This document shows positions 12,681-54,755 of a DNA stretch of 64,000 bases, piece after piece. How positions within the stretch are numbered: the stretch's first letter is position 1; each line of letters begins with the position of its first letter. Origin of the DNA: Eledone cirrhosa (taxonomy: Eukaryota). The stretch spans positions 62,001 through 126,000 of the forward strand of contig CAXHJY010000518.1 in the NCBI GenBank assembly GCA_964016885.1. Reading direction: 5' to 3'. The position numbers and the translations under genes are program-made. The notes beneath the pieces were generated by a model. The model saw only the letters and a program-made list of their open reading frames with translations. It did not search any database and was not told where the DNA came from.

Positions 12681-12714
<34 letters not shown>

Positions 12715-12871
12715 CATACAGGTACACATACATATATGTACGTATCAGTTTAGCGGACGCTTATTATAACGCCCGCTTTGTTCGTTTGTAAACAAACTGA
12801 ACAGCCTGAATTTATGCCGTACGGTGTTAAGGCAACCACGTCACCTTTTTGTTCAACACTGACACAGGAAT

Positions 12872-12910
12872 GATGTACTAGTTTCAAGCTTGTTAGCTAT
12901 CATCAGCACC
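12872..12910 (-). ncRNA. Minimal type I hammerhead ribozyme
   Basis: Minus strand reads GGTG CTGATGA TAGCT-aaca-AGCTT GAAA CTAG TA CATC. Helix III is the palindrome ACTAGT and the cleavage triplet is GUA. Confidence 0.85.
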
Positions 12911-13144
12911 GTATACCCTTCTGCCAGATGGTTGAACGTTCGAAAGTATATACTTTCCTTATGAAAATTAACGGCTGAGCAGCCTAATTTGCATATCGAG
13001 TGAGTTCGGCCAGGCGTACCGAAAACAATAAGTTGTAATAAAATGAAAACGAAATTTCATTTCTCACTCTTAGTACGGCACTTACTTAAATGTAAGTATG
13101 TATGTATACGTACATACATATATGTATACAGACGTACAGTAGCA

Positions 13145-13180
<36 letters not shown>

Positions 13181-13333
13181 CAGGTACACAGACATATATG
13201 TACGTATCAGTTTAGCGGACGCTTATTATAACGCCCGCTTTGTTCGTTTGTAAACAAACTGAAAAGCCTTAATTTATGCCGTACGGTGTTAAGGCAACCA
13301 TGTCACCTTTTTGTTCAACACTGACACAGGAAC

Positions 13334-13371
13334 GATGTACTAGTTTCAAGCTTGTTAGCTATCATCAGCAC
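13334..13371 (-). ncRNA. Minimal type I hammerhead ribozyme (second copy)
   Basis: Same core as 12872-12910. Confidence 0.82.
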
Positions 13372-13679
13372 TGTATACCCTTCTGCCAGATGGTTGAATG
13401 TGTCAGTGTTGAACAAAAAGGTGACGTGGTTGCCTACCGATGCGCTGAATGAGTGTGACTTTTTAGTCCAGCCAGCGACTTGAAAACTCTCGTACAAACA
13501 CTACACTTGTGACAATTATTGACATATAGTGCTGGGTCCATGGTACCATGTGACGACAAATGCAGAGAGGTCTCCAGATATAAAGCAATGCCTGTGCCGT
13601 GAAGCTTTTATAGTGAGCAAAGGCACTGCACAAAGCCAGTCCCACTCTCTTAACCTAACCAAGATGATATTTACATCAT

Positions 13680-17016: not shown

Positions 17017-19407
17017 CAGACGGCATAGCTCCAACACCTGCACCAACATCTATAGCACCTCTTTGTAGACGATATTGCGTGTCATCCCTTGAGGAGAGTA
17101 AGCAAAAAGTCCATTCCTGCTCCCTGCGCGGGAACAGGCAACATAAAGTTGGCCAAGGGAGAAGCATGGCTCCCCCAAATGGATGCCCGCCACCGACAAT
17201 GTTTGCCCTTGTGACTTGTTAATGGACATGGCAAAACATGGTCTCACCGGGAATTGGGATCGCCGGAAATCGAACGGGATATCTGACGCCGAGAGGAAAA
17301 GGTTCATCCTTGGAATGAAAACTTAAAATTTAATAACTCAACCGGATAATTAACGATATCGTCGGGGTCTGATTTGAAGATGTGCTCTTTACCGGGAATC
17401 TTCTCAATCAGCTGCTCGTTAATAAAATTAACCATGGTATTTTTCGGAGCAAGGATGGCTCTTTCGCTGAGCCAATCGAGGTTTTTAAAGTTAGATGAGA
17501 CATTAGGAAAAACTGTTTCCCAAGGGTCAGAAGGGCTGCTCACAATGTTGCACAGGGTGTCGATTGCTATGCCGCCCTTGTCATCCGCAGGGATCTTGCC
17601 CTCACCATGTGCTAAAATGTTCTGTGCTGCAGACATGTTGTCACCATGCAAATGAGCACGCATATTTGTGCTCAGGTACAAACTATTCACCTGGATCCAC
17701 AACATGGACGACTTAAGACAGGCACGCACTTTATCAGCTCTTGTCCATTTGGGGATGACAGGCAGCGTTTTCCGAAAATCCCCTGATAGCAGAAGGGTTA
17801 CGCCACCCATAGGAGCCGTAGAATCCCTAATGTCTTTCCGGGCCTTGTCCAATGCCTCAAGGGCACCCTTGTGTGCCATTGTGCACTCATCCCAAACAAT
17901 GAGGCAACATCTTTTGAGAACCAGAGCTTTGTGTGAACTCTTGCTGATATTGCATGTTGGTGTCTCAGTTTTTACTAAATCCAAAGGGAGTTTAAAGGTT
18001 GAATGTGCTCTCCTGCCTCCCGGCAGCAAAGTAGCAGCAATCCCGGATGATGCAACGGACAACGCAACCTTTTTCTCCTGACGAATCTTAGCGAGAATCA
18101 AATTTGTTACAAAAGTTTTTCCGGTACCCCCAGGAGCGTTTTTTATTGGGGGGATCAGGGTTGTTTTTTTTTTGACCTTGAGGTATAACCAGTCAGTAGT
18201 TCCTTCAAAGGCTCTGGCGGTTCCGTAAGAGGGGGCAAGGTGACCTTACCGTTTAAGCAGCACATTGCAGGTGGCTCCCCAGCCCACTTTGTAGCATTGC
18301 AGAATTTGCAATTGAAGCGCATCTCGCCTATATTTATGTCAGAGCGCATCGAGTAATTAACGTTTTGCTCATACTTGAAAGCCCGTAGGTGCCAGTAAGG
18401 GCTGTTGGAGCTCGTCACACCGCGTGCAGCTTCTCGCCGTCGACTGTTACGCTTGAACGTAGAACATTGGTCGTGTGGTTGGTGGTAAGGTCTGGCAGCA
18501 ATAGCAGAAGCAACATTTGCAATGCTAATGGACCGCCCGTCTGCATCTTCAGAAGCCATGGAAGTAGTCATAGCCGCAGCGTTCGTAGGAAGGCGAGCCG
18601 TCCGTTGTTTTAAACGTTCCAAAGACCTGGAAGCAGCATTAGTCGCATTGTTTCTAGCCAGGCGCTTCGACCTTTGTTCACGGCTCTCTGAATCCCTGGA
18701 AGAAGCCTGGTATGAAGCCATTTTGGCTAGGCGTGCGGTGCGCTGTTGGAAACTTTCAGCGGCTCGACATTCTGCTGAACGTAAGGCTGTCTGTGAAAGT
18801 CTTGAAGCATTTTCCTCAGAGGACTCATTTGCTATAGTAGCCTTTTGCGCCACTGCTGACGCGATATGTCAACTGAGGCGACTTCTCCTTTTAGGTGGCA
18901 TTTTATGTCCAAAAGAAAGGGTGAAAGTTACTTCTACAGAAAAATTGACTTTGAAAGTCTACTGTCTGTTTATGAATATTGTTATTGTTGTTGTGATACA
19001 AATTTTAGTAAGTAAATGGGTATCAAAAAATAAAGGGTGAAAGTTACTTCACCATAAAAATTGACTTTGAAAGTATAAGGCTGATAATTGAATGTAAAAA
19101 GCTTGTATGTATGTATGTATGTATGTATTAAAGGTTGAAAGTATAAGGCTGATAATTGAATGTAAAAAGATTGTATGTATGTATGTATGTATTAAAGGTT
19201 GAAAGTTACTTCAACATAAAAATTGACTTTGAAAGTATAAGGATGATAAGAAAGGCCCCCCCAAAAAATTTACAGGTATTTGTATGTATGTGTGTATGTT
19301 TATGTCGAAAAGAAAGGGTTAAAGTTACTTCTACAGAAAAATTTAGTTTGAAAGTGTAAGGCCGATGTGTGTGTAAATTAAGTGACAGGTATTTGTATGT
19401 ATGTGTG

Positions 19408-24168: not shown

Positions 24169-24213
24169 ATTGCCCTGATGAGTCCTTAATAGGACGAAAC
24201 ATTGTTGGCTAAT
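24169..24213 (+). ncRNA. Canonical minimal type I hammerhead ribozyme
   Basis: ATTGCC CTGATGA GTCCT-taat-AGGAC GAAA CATTG TT GGCtAAT. It lies in a unique insert of about 250 bp (24108-24358) between TA runs. Confidence 0.88.
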
Positions 24214-42706: not shown

Positions 42707-42743
<37 letters not shown>

Positions 42744-42744
42744 T

Positions 42745-42815
<71 letters not shown>

Positions 42816-42846
42816 GTATATATATATATATGTATATATATATATG

Positions 42847-42877
<31 letters not shown>

Positions 42878-42889
42878 GTATATGTATAT

Positions 42890-42950
<61 letters not shown>

Positions 42951-43092
42951 TTGTTATATTTGGGGAGGGTCATATTTGCGTAATATTGCCAGAATTAATA
43001 ACAGAACACACTCACTGTTTGGTTGGTTTTCGCTTCTCGCTGTCTTTTATATATATATATCTGCGATCTAACTTACTCAAAAAACCTCGCAA

Positions 43093-43095
<3 letters not shown>

Positions 43096-43164
<69 letters not shown>

Positions 43165-43171
43165 GTGTATA

Positions 43172-43217
<46 letters not shown>

Positions 43218-43249
43218 AATGTATATATATGTATATATATATGTGTATA

Positions 43250-43295
<46 letters not shown>

Positions 43296-43352
43296 AATGT
43301 ATATATATGTGTATATGTATATATATGTATATATATATATATAAATGTATAT

Positions 43353-43386
<34 letters not shown>

Positions 43387-43430
43387 ATGTATATGTATAT
43401 ATGTATATGTATATATATATATGTATATGT

Positions 43431-43476
<46 letters not shown>

Positions 43477-43750
43477 ATATATATATATGTATATGTATAT
43501 GTGTATGTATATATATATATATGTATATGTATATGTGTATATATATGTATATATATATATGTATATGTGTATATATATGTATATATATATATATATGTAT
43601 ATGTGTATCTATATATGTATATATATATATGTATATATATATATGTATATGTATATGTGTATATATATATGTATATATATATATGTGTATATATATATAT
43701 ATATATATGTATATGTATATATGTATATTTATATATATATGTATATGTAT

Positions 43751-43782
<32 letters not shown>

Positions 43783-43871
43783 CTGTATATGTGTATATAT
43801 ATATATATATGTGTATATGTATATATGTATATATGTATATATGTATATGTGTATATGTATATGTATATATG

Positions 43872-43904
<33 letters not shown>

Positions 43905-43905
43905 G

Positions 43906-43954
<49 letters not shown>

Positions 43955-44247
43955 GTATATGTATATATATATGTATATATATATATATATGTATATATGT
44001 ATATATATATGTATATATGTATATATGTATATATATACATATATATATATATATATGTATATGTATATATATATGTATATATGTATATATATATGTATAT
44101 ATATATATGTATATATATATGTATATGTATATATATATATGTATATGTATATGTATATATATATGTATATGTATATATATATATGTATATATATATGTAT
44201 ATATATATATATATGTATATGTATATATATATATGTATATATATATG

Positions 44248-44282
<35 letters not shown>

Positions 44283-44473
44283 GTATATATATATGTATAT
44301 ATATATGTATATATATATATGTATATATATATGTATATGTATATATATATATGTATATATATATGTATATATATATATGTATATATATATGTATATATAT
44401 ATATATGTATATATATATGTATATATATATATGTATATATATATGTATATATATATATATGTATATATATATG

Positions 44474-44504
<31 letters not shown>

Positions 44505-44517
44505 GTATATATATATG

Positions 44518-44548
<31 letters not shown>

Positions 44549-44609
44549 GTATATATATGTATATATGTATATATTTATATGTATATATATATGTGTATAT
44601 ATATATGTG

Positions 44610-44658
<49 letters not shown>

Positions 44659-44731
44659 GTATATATATATATGTATATATATATATATGTATATATGTAT
44701 ATATATATATATGTATGTATATATATATGTA
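43096..44731. repeat. Degenerate (TA)n array
   Basis: Read directly from the sequence. Confidence 0.96.
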
Positions 44732-44858
44732 TCATCATCATCATCATCATCATCAATTTCTGCCGGACCGGCAACCGCTCTTTCAAACCAGTTCCTGTAC
44801 ACAGCTAAGTATTCTATAAGTCTCTAGCTGTGTCATTCTCGATAAAAGCACTGGATAT

Positions 44859-44901
44859 GTAGTCCTGATGATTTCTAACTAGAATGAAACGCGTAGATTA
44901 C
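44859..44901 (+). ncRNA. Minimal type I hammerhead ribozyme
   Basis: GTAGTC CTGATGA tTTCT-aact-AGAAt GAAA CGCG TA GATTAC. Helix I is extended by ATTCTCGATAAAAGCA / TGCTTTTATCGAGAAT. Confidence 0.88.
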
Positions 44902-45168
44902 TTCCCTTGCTTTTATCGAGAATCTAATTGTAATACGTGACGTATTCTATTCTATAGCGATTAGGTCTTCAAAATGTTTATTATAAACATACAGAATATT
45001 TTCGAATATTCTATGTCTATATTCACATATATATCGCTATTTCAGAGCATTTATTCCAATTTCTAATTTCTGCCGGACCGGCAACCGCTCTTTCAAACCA
45101 GTTCCTGTACACAGCTAAGTATTCTATAAGTCTCTAGCTGTGTCATTCTCGATAAAAGCACTGGATAT

Positions 45169-45211
45169 GTAGTCCTGATGATTTCTAACTAGAATGAAAC
45201 GCGTAGATTAC
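45169..45211 (+). ncRNA. Minimal type I hammerhead ribozyme (second copy)
   Basis: Identical to 44859-44901. Confidence 0.88.
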
Positions 45212-45685
45212 TTCCCTTGCTTTTATCGAGAATCTAATTGTAATACGTGACGTATTCTATTCTATAGCGATTAGGTCTTCAAAATGTTTATTATAAACAT
45301 ACAGAATATTTTCGAATATTCTATGTCTATATTCACATATATATATATGTATATATATATGTGTGTATATATATATATATGTACATATATATATATATAT
45401 GTATATATATATATGTATGTATATATAATATATGTACATATATATATATATATGTATATATATATATGTATGTATATATATATATATGTACATATAATAT
45501 ATATATCTGTATGTATATGTATATATATGTATATATATATGTATATATATGTATATATATGTATATATATGTATATGTATATATATATATGTATATATAT
45601 GTATATATATGTATATATATATATATGTATATATATATGTATATATATGTATATATATGTATGTATATATATATGTATATATATA

Positions 45686-47225
45686 TCAATCTGAAAATAT
45701 TGAAGAGATAAGACACTTTCCCATTCTTCTCTGCTAAAATGTATCACTAGAGCTGATTCCAATTTTTCCCAGCCAGCCATCCATCTAATCTACGAAGGTA
45801 TTTTAGCCTACATATTGTCGTTAATATTATGATGTTCCCTGCTGTATTAGCGTTAAATTTTCCCTGCTGTATTAGCGATAAATTTTCGAGGGTTTCTCTT
45901 AGTAGCTTTTTTCATGACGTTATTATTGTTAATTTTACTGATGTAGTATTAACTTATTAACTTGGATATTTACCATGCGGTATTCTAATACTATTGTATC
46001 TCTCTCAGTTATTTACCATGCGACCCTCAGTTCCTACCCCCCCCCCCTCTCTATGCACTTCTTTAAGGCTTACTACCCTGTCTTTAACCTAATTCATTCA
46101 ATCTGAAAATATTGAGGAGATAAGACACTTTCCCATTCTTCTCTGCTAAAATGTATCACTAGAGCTGATTCCAATTTTCCCAGCCAGCCATCCATCTAAT
46201 CTACGAAGGTATTTTAGCCTACATATTGTCGTTAATATTATGATGTTCCCTGCTGTATTAGCGTTAAATTTTCCCTGCTGTATTAGCGATAAATTTTCGA
46301 GGGTTTCTCTTAGTAGCTTTTTTCATGACGTTATTATTGTTAATTTTACTGATGTAGTATTAACTTATTAACTTGGATATTTACCATGCGGTATTCTAAT
46401 CCTATTGTATCTCTCTCAGTTATTTACCATGCGACCCTCAGTGCCTACCCCCCCCCCCCTCTATGCACTTCTTTAAGGCTTACTACCCTGTCTTTAACCT
46501 AATTCATTCAATCTGAAAATATTGAAGAGATAAGACACTTTCCCATTCTTCTCTGCTAAAATGTATCACTAGAGCTGATTCCAATTTTCCCAGCCAGCCA
46601 TCCATCTAATCTACGAAGGTATTTTAGCCTACATATTGTCGTTAATATTATGATGTTCCCTGCTGTATTAGCGTTAAATTTTCCCTGCTGTATTAGCGAT
46701 AAATTTTCGAGGGTTTCTCTTAGTAGCTTTTTTCATGACGTTATTATTGTTAATTTTACTGATGTAGTATTAACTTATTAACTTGGATATTTACCATGCG
46801 GTATTCTAATCCTATTGTATCTCTCTCAGATATTTACCATGCGACCCTCAGTTCCTACCCCCCCCCCCCCCTCTCTATGCACTTCTTTAAGGCTTACTAC
46901 CCTGTCTTTAACCTAATTCATTCAATCTGAAAATATTGAAGAGATAAGACACTTTCCCATTCTTCTCTGCTAAAATGTATCACTAGAGCTGATTCCAATT
47001 TTCCCAGCCAGCCATCCATCTAATCTACGAAGGTATTTTAGCCTACATATTGTCGTTAATATTATGATGTTCCCTGCTGTATTAGCGTTAAATTTTCCCT
47101 GCTGTATTAGCGATAAATTTTCGAGGGTTTCTCTTAGTAGCTTTTTTCAGGACGTTATTATTGTTAATTTTACTGATGTAGTATTAACTTGGATATTTAC
47201 CATGCGACCCTCAGTTCCTACCTCA
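45686..47225. repeat. Tandem repeat with a unit of about 411 bp (about 3.7 units)
   Basis: tcaatctgaaaatattga recurs at 45686, 46098, 46508 and 46922. Units differ mainly in poly-C length. Confidence 0.93.
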
Positions 47226-47469: not shown

Positions 47470-50378
47470 ATCTGCGAGCTACCAAGCACCGACGGCTTCA
47501 ATAGAGTACATGGAGGCCATGGAGTTGGCACAAGGAATGAGGAAGGATTCAGACTTCTAGAATTCTGCGACGCCAATGACATGTCGATATGTAACACAAA
47601 CTTTAAAAAACCCGACAACCACCTGATCACCTATAGATCAGGGGAGCACTCTAGTCAGTTAGATTTTATCCTCATCAGAGGACGTGACAGATGGACGGTT
47701 GTAAACACAAAAGCCTTCCCTAGTGAGGAATGTACATCCCAACATAGCTTAGTTGTCAGCGACCTCACGGTCAGAACTAGACGAGCCCTGAAACAGAGGC
47801 CAACCTGGAGAAGAAAGATCTGGAAGCTGAAAGTCCCCTCAACCAGTAACAGATTTAAAGATATTTTACTCAACGCCTACGACAGTAAAGAAGAACAGAT
47901 AGAGACATTTAACGTAGAAGAGAACTGGGAGTTCCTAAAAAATAACTTACTAGAGGCGACGGATGAGGTTTGTGGCTGGAGTAAGACCTCAAGCAGGAGG
48001 AGAGTGACTTGGTGGTGGAACAATAAGGTAGATGAAGCAGTCAAGGCCAAGAGGCAGGCATGGAAAGAATGGAAGAACGGGGGGAGCAGGGTACATTACA
48101 TAGAGACCAAGAGGGAAGCTAGGCGACAAGTATACTTAGCTAGGAGGGAAGCAGAGGATAGAAAATTCAAGCATGTTTTACAACGTGAGGACCAGAAACA
48201 GGAGGTATTCAAGATTACGAGGCAGTGTGTCAGAGATAGTTGTGATGTCATTGGAGAGAAGTGTATCCGGAATGATAAAGGTGAGCTTGCCCTCACAAGT
48301 GCTGAGAAGAAAGATGCATGGAAGAGTCATTATGATAGATTACTAAATGAGGAGAATGCATGGGAAGAAGAGACCCTACCCCACGTAGACCCTATAGAGG
48401 GACCAGCAGTACAAGTCAGCGGCAGCGTAGTAAGTAAGGCAATCAGAGATATGAAGATAGGGAAGGCAACCGGTCCATCGGGTATAGCTGCCGAGATGCT
48501 GAAGGCATCTGGGTCTGTAGGTCACACTATAACCACACGTATCGTTAACCAGGTAATACTAGAGGGGGCCATACCAAAAGATTGGTGCAGTAGCATCATT
48601 GTCAACTGCTACAAAGGTAAAGGCGATGCACTAGATAGAGGAAACTATAGAGGTATAAAGTTGATGGACCAGGTCATGAAAGTAACAGAAAGAGTTATAG
48701 CACAGCTGATTAGGGACCGGGTGAATATAGACGAGATGCAATTTGGGTTTGTACCAGGGAAAGGCACCACTGATGCCCTCTTCCTTGTGAGGCAATTACA
48801 GGAAAAGTACCTAGCTAAAAGTAAGCCACTCTACTTGGCATTTGTCGACCTTGAGAAAGCCTTTGACAGAGTTCCACGTGCAGTAATCTGGTGGGCTCTT
48901 AGAAAACTAGGAGTAGATGAATGGCTTGTGAAAGCGGTACAAGCCATGTATAGGGGAGCAGTCAGCAAAGTTAGGATTGGCAATGAGTATAGCGAGGAAT
49001 TTAGCGTACAGGTTGGGGTCCACCAGGGCTCTGTTCTTAGCCCTCTCCTGTTCATCATAGTCCTGCAGGCAATAACGGAGGAGTTTAAGACCGGATGCCC
49101 ATGGGAACTCCTGTATGCTGATGACCTCGCACTCATAGCTGAATCTATGGTAGAACTAGAGAATAAATTCCAAACCTGGAAGCAGGGACTAGAGAGAAAG
49201 GGCCTCAAAGTCAACATGACAAAGACTAAGGTCCTTATAAGTAGACGAGAAAACAGAACCCAGATCCCCTCAGGGAAATGGCCTTGCTCAGTATGTAGGA
49301 AAGGTGTAGGTAGGAACTCCATTCTTTGCCCCAAATGCAAACAATGGGTACACAAGAGATGTAGCGGGATCTCAGGAAGCTTAATTAAGAATGTAGGATT
49401 CACATGCAGCAGCTGTGCTGAAACAGCAAGCAAACAGCCACAGGAAACAAGTACCACCAATCTCTGGGAGGGCCCTGTAGAAACAGTAGACAGCTTCTGC
49501 TACCTAGGTGACCGAATTAGCAACGGAGGTGGGTGCTCAGAAAGTACAATAACTAGGGTAAGAACGGGATGGAAGAAGTTTAGGGAACTACTACCACTGC
49601 TAGCTGCAAAAGGCTTCTCCCTCAGAATGAAAGGCAGACTGTATGATGCGTGTATCCGAACAGCGATGTTGCATGGTAGTGAGACCTGGGCGCTGAAGGT
49701 GGAAGACTTACGTAGATTAGAGAGAAACGAAGCCTGCATGCTCCGATGGATGTGTAACAGTAATATACGTGAACGACAAAGCATAAAGGAATTGAGAGAG
49801 AGACTGAGCATAAGAGGAATCAAATGCTGCGTGCAGGAGAGGCGGTTACGCTGGTATGGACATGTGATGCGTATGAAGGATGACAGCTGCATAAAAAGGT
49901 GCAGAGCACTAGAAGTTGATGGAAACCGCGGAGTGGGGAGACCCAAGATGACTTGGGATGAGGTGATAAAAGCCGACCTTACCCAACTACACCTCTCAAA
50001 GTCAATGACACACGACCGTGACTTCTGGCGTCACGCAGTAATACAGGGTACCCGACCTCCCATGGGTACATGCTGAAGCATATAAACAATATGCCCCCCC
50101 CCCCCACCGCAAGGTGGCCGTGGAGGTGCCACGGCAAAAAAGCACCCAGCCCACACTGTAAAGTGGACGTGTAGGCGCCACGAAAAAGCACCCAGCACTC
50201 ACTGTAAATGAGGTTGGTGTTAGGAAGGGCATCCAGCTGTAGAAATCAAGCCAGATCAGTTCCTGTATGAGCAAGGCATGGTCAGCCGACCAGACACTGC
50301 CCACAACAGGACAACCCGTCTAACCCATGCTAGCGTGGAAGAACGGACGTAAAACGGTGATGATGATGATGATGATGA
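47470..50378 (+). mobile_element. 5'-truncated RTE-clade LINE (family A)
   Basis: It has the APE C-terminus, RT, a 3' UTR with repeated gccacg..aaaagcacccagc..cactgtaaa modules, and a (GAT)n tail into (TA)n. Confidence 0.93.
47581..50076 (+). CDS. RTE ORF (end of APE, RT, PHD-like Cys cluster); N-terminus truncated
   Basis: Motifs are QLDFIL, NYRGIKL, FVDLEKAFD, GVHQGSVLSP, LYADD, CSVC...[12 protein letters not shown]...CSSC, GSETW and RLRWYGH. Confidence 0.9.
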   Translation: MSICNTNFKKPDNHLITYRSGEHSSQLDFILIRGRDRWTVVNTKAFPSEECTSQHSLVVSDLTVRTRRALKQRPTWRRKIWKLKVPSTSNRFKDILLNAYDSKEEQIETFNVEENWEFLKNNLLEATDEVCGWSKTSSRRRVTWWWNNKVDEAVKAKRQAWKEWKNGGSRVHYIETKREARRQVYLARREAEDRKFKHVLQREDQKQEVFKITRQCVRDSCDVIGEKCIRNDKGELALTSAEKKDAWKSHYDRLLNEENAWEEETLPHVDPIEGPAVQVSGSVVSKAIRDMKIGKATGPSGIAAEMLKASGSVGHTITTRIVNQVILEGAIPKDWCSSIIVNCYKGKGDALDRGNYRGIKLMDQVMKVTERVIAQLIRDRVNIDEMQFGFVPGKGTTDALFLVRQLQEKYLAKSKPLYLAFVDLEKAFDRVPRAVIWWALRKLGVDEWLVKAVQAMYRGAVSKVRIGNEYSEEFSVQVGVHQGSVLSPLLFIIVLQAITEEFKTGCPWELLYADDLALIAESMVELENKFQTWKQGLERKGLKVNMTKTKVLISRRENRTQIPSGKWPCSVCRKGVGRNSILCPKCKQWVHKRCSGISGSLIKNVGFTCSSCAETASKQPQETSTTNLWEGPVETVDSFCYLGDRISNGGGCSESTITRVRTGWKKFRELLPLLAAKGFSLRMKGRLYDACIRTAMLHGSETWALKVEDLRRLERNEACMLRWMCNSNIRERQSIKELRERLSIRGIKCCVQERRLRWYGHVMRMKDDSCIKRCRALEVDGNRGVGRPKMTWDEVIKADLTQLHLSKSMTHDRDFWRHAVIQGTRPPMGTC

Positions 50379-51545: not shown

Positions 51546-52890
51546 TGTTATACTTTGGGAGGGTCATGTTGCCAATAAGAAACACACGCACCAGTAGCTT
51601 TCACTTCAATTTATTATATATTTATAAATTTATAAATTTACAAATCTACAAACTTATAAATTTCTGGTTGGTTGGTTTGTTCCACAACCAGATAGTTGTT
51701 TATATATATAGTCATAGTCCTTTCGTCACACACTCTGTGACCTCTTCAGTGACTGGGGATTCCTTTCTTCGTTTCTGTGCCTTTTCTTTCTTCTATCCTA
51801 CGCCATTTTGTTTCTGTGTGTGTGTTGTGTGCTCAGTTTGCGCATGCGCCACATCCGGGTGTCTGTGTGTGTTTGTGTTCATTTTTCTATTTGTTTATTT
51901 ATTTATTTATTTATTGTTGGTTGGTTGTTTGTTCTATGTGTGTGTGTTTTCATTTTGTCCTGTGTGTGTTTTCAATTGTAAGTTGTTTGTTCTATGTGTG
52001 TGTGTGTTTTCATTTTGTCCTTAATTGTAAGTTGTGATGTTGCTGTTCCACTCATTTTTTTTTATTTCATTTTGGTTTTAATTCTTTTATGCTTACTGCC
52101 TCTGTAATTTGCCTAAACATTGCGTCTTTTCTGTGCGTGGATTCTATTTTTATTTTTATTTCTATGCTCTCTAATCTACCCCTGTGTTCTATCTTAGCAT
52201 GTTGGTAGAGCACAGATGATTCTTTATTATCTTGGAGGTCTCGCCAGTGTTCATTTATTCGTTCCCCTATACTACGAGCTGTCTCACCTATGTACACTAT
52301 ATTTTTGTTTCTACATTGTCCTTCAGTACATCTTATGCTATACACTACATTTCTAGTTTTACAGTTAATATGGGGGCTTATTTTACAGGTTATACATTTC
52401 TTATCTATACATGAGGGTCTTTGGAACGGGTATGTCTTGCTAATAAGTGTTTTTACGGAGGTACCAGGTCTTTCTACTATCTTAATATTGAGATTATGTT
52501 TGTTTAGGGCCCTTCTAAATTTGTAGGCTACTTCGCCTCTAGGGGTTGTATTGATGAACATTACACTCTGGTATTTATTGCTATCATACCATGAGTTTAT
52601 TCTATTGGCCTTGTTCCTAGTTCTTTCTATTCTATTCCAAAATTTGCTCCTATACAAGGGGCAGGTCCCATTTATGTCATTATTTACCATTTTTTCCCAT
52701 TTGGTTCTGGCTCCTTTATACACTCTGATTCTATCTCTCTGATTGTAGCCAGAGAACTGCATACGGTGGATGAAGTGTTGTATGTGTCTCTCTAGTTCTT
52801 CGGGGTTGCACATGCGGGACACATTTCTCATCACCCGTACCAAATCCGCAATCAGTACTGATTTGGTACGGGCCACTCTTCCATACGGAT
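51545..52890 (-). mobile_element. PLE 3' fragment (thumb, linker and GIY-YIG)
   Basis: ORF 52067-52897 carries RMQFSGY, CIDKKCITC and NCKTRNVVYSIRC...YIGETARSIGERINEH. Confidence 0.85.
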
Positions 52891-54755
52891 GGTTCATTAA
52901 CCGAAAACCCCCAAGAGATATATGAAATACTGAACGAACAGTAAAAAAGTTTGTTCACATGTCCACTGAGGCACATGCAAATAACGAAGCCAGAGGAGTT
53001 CTTTGATGCCACAACACTACATGAAGAAATGGCAACCATCAACCACATAGACATAACGGAGGAGGATGTGGTGTATACCATTGATGAAATTAGAACAGAC
53101 TCGGCTGCTGGACCTGATGGATTCCCAGCAGTTCTCTTAAAAATATGTAAGCTGGCCTTAGCAACTCCACTGAAGATGCTCTTCAGAAGCTCCTTGGCTA
53201 GCGGTGTACTACCCAGGGAGCTGAAAGAAGGCACAATATGCCCTATCCATAAAGGAGGTAGCAGAGCGGAGGCCAAAAACTATAGGCCAGTCTCCCTGAC
53301 GTCGCATATCAGTAAGGTCATGGAGCGAGTCGTCAGAAAGAAACTGATCACTTTCCTCAAGGAAAATGACCGCCTGACTAGCACGCAACATGGCTTCCGC
53401 CCAGGAAGAAGCTGCCTTACACAGCTGCTACATCACTACGACTGGGTACTGAGACAACTACTAGACAGCTCACATGAGGACGTGATATATCTTGACTTTG
53501 CAAAGGCCTTTGACAAGGTCGACCACGGAATGATATGTCACAAACTACACGGACTCAGCATAAATGAAAAAGTAGGTGAGTGGCTGCATGGCTTCCTAAG
53601 GGACAGAAGCCAGGCAGTCGCAGCAAATGGGGCCCTCTCAAAGGAAACACCAATGACAAGTGGGGTGCCTCAGGGGACAGTCCTGGGACCACTACTGTTT
53701 TTGGTGGCTCTCTCAGACATGCCCTCTGTAGTACATACAACAACATCCCTCACTAGCTATGCTGATGACACTAAGGTAGCACAGGCAATCAAAAACCCGG
53801 CTGACGCTGCCCTTTTACAGCAGGATCTGGATGCCATATACAAATGGGCGGAAGAAAACAACATGTAGTTTAATGCTGGCAAATTCCAAGCCCTACAATA
53901 CAAACCTCCAAACAAACCTGCAAACACAAATATAGTGGAACACAACTACACAGGACCAGGAGGGACCGATATCCCCGTGTCAAAATCAATACGAGACCTG
54001 GGCATAGACATGAGCGAGGATCCATCTTTTTCTTCACACATCATGAAAGTGGCGACAATGTGCACACAACTCGCTGGCTGGATCTTGAGGACTTTCCGGA
54101 CAAGAGATCGAGACACCATGTTGACACTATGGAGGACATTTGTCCTAAGCCGCCTGGACTAATGCTCCCAGTTGTGGTCACCCCATAGTGTCAAACTAAC
54201 CACGGAGCTTGATGCAATCCAGCGAAGCTACACCAAGAGGGTTGCCAAGATGAGGGAGACAAGCTACTGGAAGAGGCTGAAGGAACTGAACCTCTACTCC
54301 TTGGAGCGAAGACGGGAGAGATACGCAGTGATCTACATGTGGAAAATCCTGGAGGGACTAACACCAAACTTTGGCATTGGGAGCTGGACCAACCGTCGAA
54401 CAGGACGTCACTGTGTGGTGCCAAAGGTCCCGTCTTCCACATCTAGATGAATGAGCAGGTATTGCAATAGGCTGGGATTCAAGGGCCCTCAACTCTTCAA
54501 CAGGCTGCTGAGGGATCTGAGAGATCTGCATGACGTGGAGGTGGATGTCTTCAAGAAACATCTCAACACCTTGTTATCCAGGATCCCGGATGAGCCGAAA
54601 GCAAGACACGAGGGAAACCTAAGGGCAGCAGCGACAAACTCCCTCTTACACCAGTGGCCAACCTATACAGGCTGGAGATAAAATGTGTAGCAACAAGGGC
54701 GGTGCCCCAGCATGGCCTCAGCCGGATGGCTGAAACAGGTAAAAGAGTAAAAGAG
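52890..54755 (+). mobile_element. 5'-truncated CR1-group LINE (family B), pseudogenised
   Basis: Motifs are [32 protein letters not shown] and LYSLERRRERY. Several stops occur (53866, 54160, 54445). The tail is GTAAAAGA x2 into (TA)n. Confidence 0.9.

Follow-up and report, generated by a model that had tools for sequence, protein, structure and literature searches.

The tandem hammerhead repeat at 44755-45344 of the window, the 64,000-nt stretch of an Eledone cirrhosa contig analysed here, belongs to a young family whose insertions carry a Penelope-like footprint. Our main reading, to which we give a probability of about 0.7, is that this non-coding repeat is inserted by a Penelope-like reverse transcriptase-endonuclease and that both DNA ends are primed on one RNA at two sites. 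Fixed ends, a one-sided tail and inverted arrays together point to Penelope-type machinery, and the probable source of the footprint is a Penelope-type enzyme that copied one RNA. Penelope mobilisation and a circular template have been proposed for retrozymes (PMC7229834; bioRxiv 10.64898/2026.07.22.740005; these and the other PMC and bioRxiv sources are cited from extracts), and in the extracts examined both the enzyme that moves animal retrozymes and the circle as its template have the standing of proposals. A literature search, whose scope stopped short of subscription journals and of the supplements of the Li preprint, found no description of two-armed retrozyme insertions, and the insertion anatomy is new relative to the literature searched.

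The repeat copy and its family

The repeat consists of 280+30+280 nt with an exact period of 310 (Table 1). Its units start at 44755 and 45065 and are 100% identical over their first 280 nt, and the stretch 45035-45064 is present once, which makes 1.9 copies. The exact 310-bp dimer of the sequence-only reading is thus retained for its period and its identity and given up as two complete units. Beyond about 45335, the end of the second unit passes through AT microhomology into the target, and the same tail-less end occurs about 1,280 times in the genome. With a GC content of 0.34 and a longest ATG frame of 30 codons, the unit is non-coding, as had been claimed; this frame was considered as a gene and rejected, as it is not kept by eye in the sister families described below. 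The window copy is a one-armed, 5′-truncated member of the family, and an ordinary short one.

Table 1. Coordinates of the repeat copy, its predicted RNA features and its flanks in the window
Feature	Position	Strand	Remark
(AT)n-rich microsatellite, left flank	42707..44730	.	
(ATC)8 tract, 5′ junction	44731..44755	-	resembles the (GAT)n tail of the window's RTE-type elements, body absent
Complete 310-nt unit	44755..45064	+	start is the 5′-truncation point of the window insertion
16-bp perfect helix enclosing hammerhead 1	44835-44850 with 44908-44923	+	repeated at 45145-45233
Type I hammerhead 1	44859..44901	+	predicted cut after 44895
Predicted cut-to-cut 310-nt monomer (inferred RNA)	44896..45205	+	circular fold z = -4.5
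Predicted module: closing helix and two hairpins	44954..45040	+	immediately before both fixed ends
35-nt tail between the two fixed ends	45026..45060	+	
Second unit	45065..45344	+	runs to the fixed end that lacks a tail; about 45335 is its last templated base
Type I hammerhead 2	45169..45211	+	predicted cut after 45205
(AT)n-rich microsatellite, target at 3′ end	45337..45686	.	

Each hammerhead has the conserved core (44865-44871/44886-44889 and 45175-45181/45196-45199) and three helices: helix I of 6 bp, helix II of 4 bp with a U.U at its base and helix III of 2 bp, closed by a 2-nt loop inside the palindrome ACGCGT (44889-44894 and 45199-45204). The same U.U is found in other families here, with a different helix II. 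The palindrome, the full complementarity of the 16-bp distal helix and the spacing of the predicted cut sites by exactly 310 nt, the proposed size of the monomer, all agree with what had been read from the sequence. Two internal loops separate the 16-bp helix from helix I, and the unit folds with z = -5.3, none of 100 shuffles being equally stable. The earlier description of the hammerhead as minimal does not hold. Minimal hammerheads of Penelope-like elements have no helix III, a helix II of 7-8 bp and a helix I of 4-5 bp (PMC4209133), whereas helices of 6, 4 and 2 bp with a palindromic loop are the usual, 'canonical' build of metazoan type I motifs, and hammerheads with these helix sizes are thought to act as dimers (PMC4209133). 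The Rfam hammerhead models gave no match at the gathering threshold and none at E≤10.

Further hammerheads lie elsewhere in the window. A small element with a long hairpin at 12700-13440 on the minus strand (cores at 13368 and 12906), also copied in L135 and L147, combines a palindromic helix III with the basal U.U pair in helix II, and a core at 24175 on the plus strand has a canonical-looking helix II.

At least 236 matches to the unit, many of them 100% identical, are dispersed in the 3.0-Gb genome. Exact patterns counted 1,281 tail-less ends followed by AT (a few being internal variants), 793 tailed ends on the forward strand (the reverse-strand count is inflated by a variable gap) and 8,984 ribozyme cores, the last with one pattern for one allele class; reversed-pattern controls gave 0 for all three. 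The genome probably holds 1,300-1,600 insertions or more. The sequence-only reading had suggested a copy search for permuted ends: the copies are indeed dispersed, but their 3′ ends are fixed at two sites 35 nt apart. That the repeat itself is an assembly duplication has practically no weight. It could be entertained because the window lies on a 165-kb unplaced contig, yet a check of public contigs, which covered the joint from position 310 to position 1, found this joint in 4/4 runs, and it recurs in hundreds of arrays on chromosome-scale contigs.

Metazoan non-LTR retrozymes are tandem non-coding units of 150-450 nt with less than 50% GC and one type I hammerhead each (PMC7229834), and the window family shares the tandem units within this size range, the GC content, the non-coding sequence, the hammerhead in each unit and the dispersion. 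Judged by its sequence, the family qualifies as a metazoan non-LTR retrozyme in all features that could be tested here, the Rfam match excepted. This identity, proposed from the window, gains from the dispersed near-identical arrays and from the single haplotype found in each insertion (see below), which also fit the proposed recent insertion from a circular or multimeric template. Cleavage and circles have been demonstrated experimentally for published retrozymes (Cervera and de la Pena 2020; Li, Clavereau and Pollet), whereas both are predictions from the sequence of the window family; its unit gave no homology to a pLTR among the 122 Penelope loci surveyed.

The surroundings of the copy contain other mobile sequences. 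The (ATC)8 stretch that the copy abuts at its 5′ end can be read as a tail, without a body, of the kind carried by neighbouring RTE-type elements. In another locus (L289:2053), a tailed end of the sister family C abuts an (ATC)n tract directly, so that such tails can also serve as targets. At 45686-47190, 3.7 copies of a 410-bp unit, 98% alike, lie directly upstream of an 868-codon RTE-type frame (47470-50076); they look like the monomer-repeat 5′ region of a LINE, and a scan found no hammerhead core in them. Frames at 17304-18868 on the minus strand resemble what we take to be a Helitron helicase.

Two arms and two fixed ends

The anatomy of the insertions was established on 80 of them on one contig (C1), chosen from lists of tail-less and tailed ends in (AT)n, and on a separate set of 20 best-hit loci chosen by identity only. 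Before counting, we dropped the second cluster of L069 (identical with L070), the first cluster of L083 (a repeat across a gap), matches below 92% identity or shorter than 30 nt, short-end positions 266-281 and four junction calls in L213, and for part of the counts the 15 nt flanking each junction were left out. In 68 of the 80 insertions, two arrays stand head to head with their 3′ ends outward, and in all 68 one end lies at about unit position 271-280 and the other at 306-310. The tailed ends fall at position 306 (47), 310 (10) or 308 (9), and also at 309 and 307. Among the loci chosen by identity, 17 of 20 are two-armed and nearly all are flanked by AT. The 5′ ends are scattered over the unit across insertions and the inner junctions are likewise scattered, 32 of 68 overlapping by 1-8 nt. 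Insertions have a median of 8 units, and arrays reach 46 pieces on one arm. The 5′ junctions avoid the predicted cut site, 1 of 121 lying within 10 nt of it where 8.25 were expected (Poisson p = 0.002, post hoc). The remaining 12 of the 80 look one-armed, like the window copy, one of them being cut by a gap and one having a tiny partner end; the ratio of short to tailed ends among one-armed copies is biased by the sampling. A clean one-armed insertion lies within the 3′ (AT)n tract of another element (L257).

Penelope elements are marked by (TA)n targets, by inverted 5′ copies and by a one-sided tail of 30-40 bp (PMC8557442), and a purified Penelope protein nicks and extends both strands, the tail being delimited by the two internal RNA sites at which it starts (PMC11167929). 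Here, a 35-nt tail is found on one end in 68/68 two-armed insertions and an inverted 5′-truncated copy in 68/80, and the target is (TA)n. In these respects the family resembles the endonuclease-bearing Penelope elements (PMC8557442; PMC11167929), with which it also shares an internal start downstream of the hammerhead (Craig et al. 2021; Frangieh et al. 2024, PMC11167929). It resembles too the non-autonomous Chlamys elements such as MRC1, which are non-coding Penelope dependants with multicopy head-to-tail insertions (PMC8557442), and of which one pair is active (PMC9977147). However, these share 3′ sequence with autonomous families, a sharing that did not turn up for the window family among 122 Penelope loci, and the Naiad/Chlamys group has no canonical hammerheads (PMC8557442). 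The extracts of the retrozyme texts (PMC7229834 and the Li preprint) mention neither inverted arrays in pairs nor a fixed pair of 3′ ends nor a single haplotype within each insertion, and the word 'inverted' has 0 occurrences in that of PMC7229834. Unlike Penelope elements, the window family has no ORF, and both of its arms are multi-unit arrays. A further comparison is LINE-1 twin priming, in which two primers are used, the 5′ part is inverted and the joint shows microhomology; all three features recur here, but the starts of both primers are adjacent and at fixed sites, and the same sequence is copied many times.

Might the short end be explained more simply? Plain annealing of the primer to an internal AT run could be an alternative. 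In family C, 15 of 42 matches have the short end at the homologous base though no internal AT run is present there (the others comprise 5 tailed, 10 internal and 12 other ends), which argues that the short end is set by position and not just by annealing.

The tail, the inversion and the hammerhead are all features of the pseudo-LTRs of Penelope elements, and the units might therefore be truncated ends of a coding element in place of an independent non-autonomous family. We consider this very improbable, since all 80 insertions consist of head-to-tail units with arms ending inside a unit and 0/80 run on into element-specific non-repeat sequence (reading frames lying outside this check). The sole copy beside a Penelope ORF, in L257, was also considered as a Penelope-retrozyme chimera and rejected: it sits in the 3′ (AT)n tract of that element.

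One haplotype, and probably one RNA, per insertion

If a single RNA is copied into both arms, the arms should carry the same variants. The 80 insertions contain 34 haplotypes, 24 of which were seen once. Both arms share the majority haplotype in 58 of 63 informative loci, where 5,000 permutations of the arms gave a mean concordance of 8.4 and a maximum of 17, and in the loci whose haplotype had no second occurrence agreement was 18 of 18. Among the five discordant loci, L221 and L086 are true mosaics and the other three come from one-unit arms or a junction piece. Unequal crossover has been suggested to enlarge retrozyme arrays (Li et al., bioRxiv 10.64898/2026.07.22.740005), and a Penelope terminal repeat inserted once per locus might have grown locally in this way as a satellite. 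Arms of up to 46 pieces would suit such growth, and so would the period of 27 units in L089/L090, which resembles a later duplication. It accounts neither for the same private haplotype on two opposite arms nor for fixed outer ends combined with variable, often overlapping inner junctions, and we regard it as most improbable.

What form did the RNA have? The predicted cut site is crossed by 129 of the 136 arms, by 112 of them at least twice, and the 747 crossings carry only 2 stray changes at unit positions 138-145. Such seamless crossing argues against a template of cut linear monomers copied to their end. For a new variant to occupy an entire array, a bottleneck of one unit is required, and rolling round a ligated monomer would supply both this bottleneck and the growth of the array. 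On the other hand, 3 of 35 testable two-armed loci have deviant units that recur in register on both arms when counted inward from the outer ends. The deviation is confined to the outermost unit in L199 and L208, and L221 has two units of one haplotype followed by another on both arms. A single monomer circle is insufficient for these loci, where the template was longer than one unit, and they point to an uncut multimer serving as template at least sometimes. The switch of haplotype in L086 affects one arm only, so template switching also occurs. Variants also recur at intervals within single arms, every 7 units in L070 and 27 in L089/L090, and in L065 and L071 as well; re-annealing on a multimer, later duplication or assembly error could each produce this. 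From these patterns, most insertions probably copied a circular RNA and some an uncut multimer.

An explanation that dispenses with the circle would have Penelope twin priming always act on an uncut linear read-through transcript of the array, with re-annealing of the cDNA lengthening and homogenising the product. It would account directly for the in-register variants at 3/35 loci and for the periodic variants within arms, and it agrees with the insertion by the Penelope protein PAc in vitro, for which cleavage is unnecessary (PMC11167929). However, the 24 haplotypes seen once are nevertheless in the majority across their own insertion, which calls for the one-unit bottleneck, and 32 of the 35 testable loci share no in-register deviation. 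The sparing of the catalytic core by founder variants would also go unexplained if cleavage were irrelevant, and we hold an exclusively linear template to be unlikely.

This sparing was seen when ribozyme variants were classified by hand as disruptive or not. Founder variants disrupt the core or the helices in 0 of 12 cases and sporadic variants in 10 of 14 (p = 0.0002, or 0.008 if two bulges count as disruptive). The 12 founder variants fall at a free core position, in loop II or at wobble-compatible sites, or add a bulge, and in the 16-bp helix all three founder changes are A>G, with G.U pairs as the outcome. Among substitutions, A>G accounts for 8 of 27 in founder variants and 7 of 107 in sporadic ones (p = 0.0025). 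The excess fits A-to-I editing of the RNA intermediate, and selection for wobble pairs would look similar.

A model of insertion by way of a Penelope-like enzyme can thus be outlined. The hammerheads, probably paired as dimers by way of their palindromic helix III, would cut array transcripts into monomers of 310 nt, and ligation would turn these into circles. The reverse transcriptase-endonuclease would nick (AT)n DNA and both DNA ends would be primed on one RNA molecule, whose two fixed internal priming sites are spaced by 35 nt; two enzymes would then run round the circle many times, and the two cDNAs would be joined through microhomology. In a minority of events, an uncut multimer would be the template. 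At the window locus, only the tail-less primer would have left a lasting arm, of 1.9 units, and its 5′ end would have been joined to the (ATC)n tract.

Sister families, a putative start module and candidate Penelope partners

Two older relatives of roughly 315-330 nt, families B and C, were traced from loose ends in public contigs. The sequence common to the families spans unit position 200 onwards, the tail and the first 70 bases; the hammerheads differ. The two hairpins upstream of the fixed ends keep their pairing through compensatory changes in the three families, which represent three lineages only, and the predicted module that contains them is likely to be a signal for the reverse transcriptase.

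The core of the family B ribozyme (L091-L110) has U at position 3 and A at position 8 in place of C and G, a core pair described in PMC11167929, and its helix III is a 12-nt palindrome. Assessed by eye, the double change at the 3-8 pair suggests that this ribozyme was kept functional. An unrelated element (L176:1183-1208) has a hammerhead core identical at 26/28 positions, hinting at an exchange of ribozymes between families.

The genome contains at least nine Penelope families with GIY-YIG-type frames, several of them young and with long open frames; the clade names that we assign to them by motif are tentative. A partial survey for an autonomous partner used a GIY-YIG family and three window proteins as queries and covered 20 longer loci. 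In blastn comparisons of the unit or of the putative start module with 122 Penelope loci of about nine families, a set without Naiads and several long 3′ ends, no homology was found beyond inserted retrozyme copies. The other matches were a 28-nt ribozyme core in L176 and 16 nt in the 3′ region of one Penelope element, the latter treated as chance.

A fuller version of the model is that a Penelope dimer primes the break ends on an edited, hammerhead-processed circle through a portable three-helix module on which ribozymes may be swapped, multimers being a minor route. We regard the chances for and against it as evenly balanced. Counted against the main reading, with its circle and Penelope-like enzyme, are the 3/35 in-register loci, the variants recurring within arms, the 5/63 discordant loci, the lack of a homologous partner in the 122 loci and of an Rfam match, the PAc insertion without cleavage and the cleavage of only 1 of 9 retrozyme dimers reported by Li et al. 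(bioRxiv 10.64898/2026.07.22.740005). If the reading by circle and module is true, the genome records the priming step in over a thousand insertions. As a young family, these retrozymes offer defined start sites, a candidate module for recognition that persists when ribozymes are exchanged, and a tally of circle against multimer usage; all three bear on the way in which Penelope elements produce tandem and inverted copies of themselves.

The window also holds the end of a very young Penelope family (51550-52954, minus strand, and L182-L184), with 97-99% protein identity and open frames of up to 1,280 codons; a hammerhead lies at 51749 in this end, whose tail measures about 59 nt.
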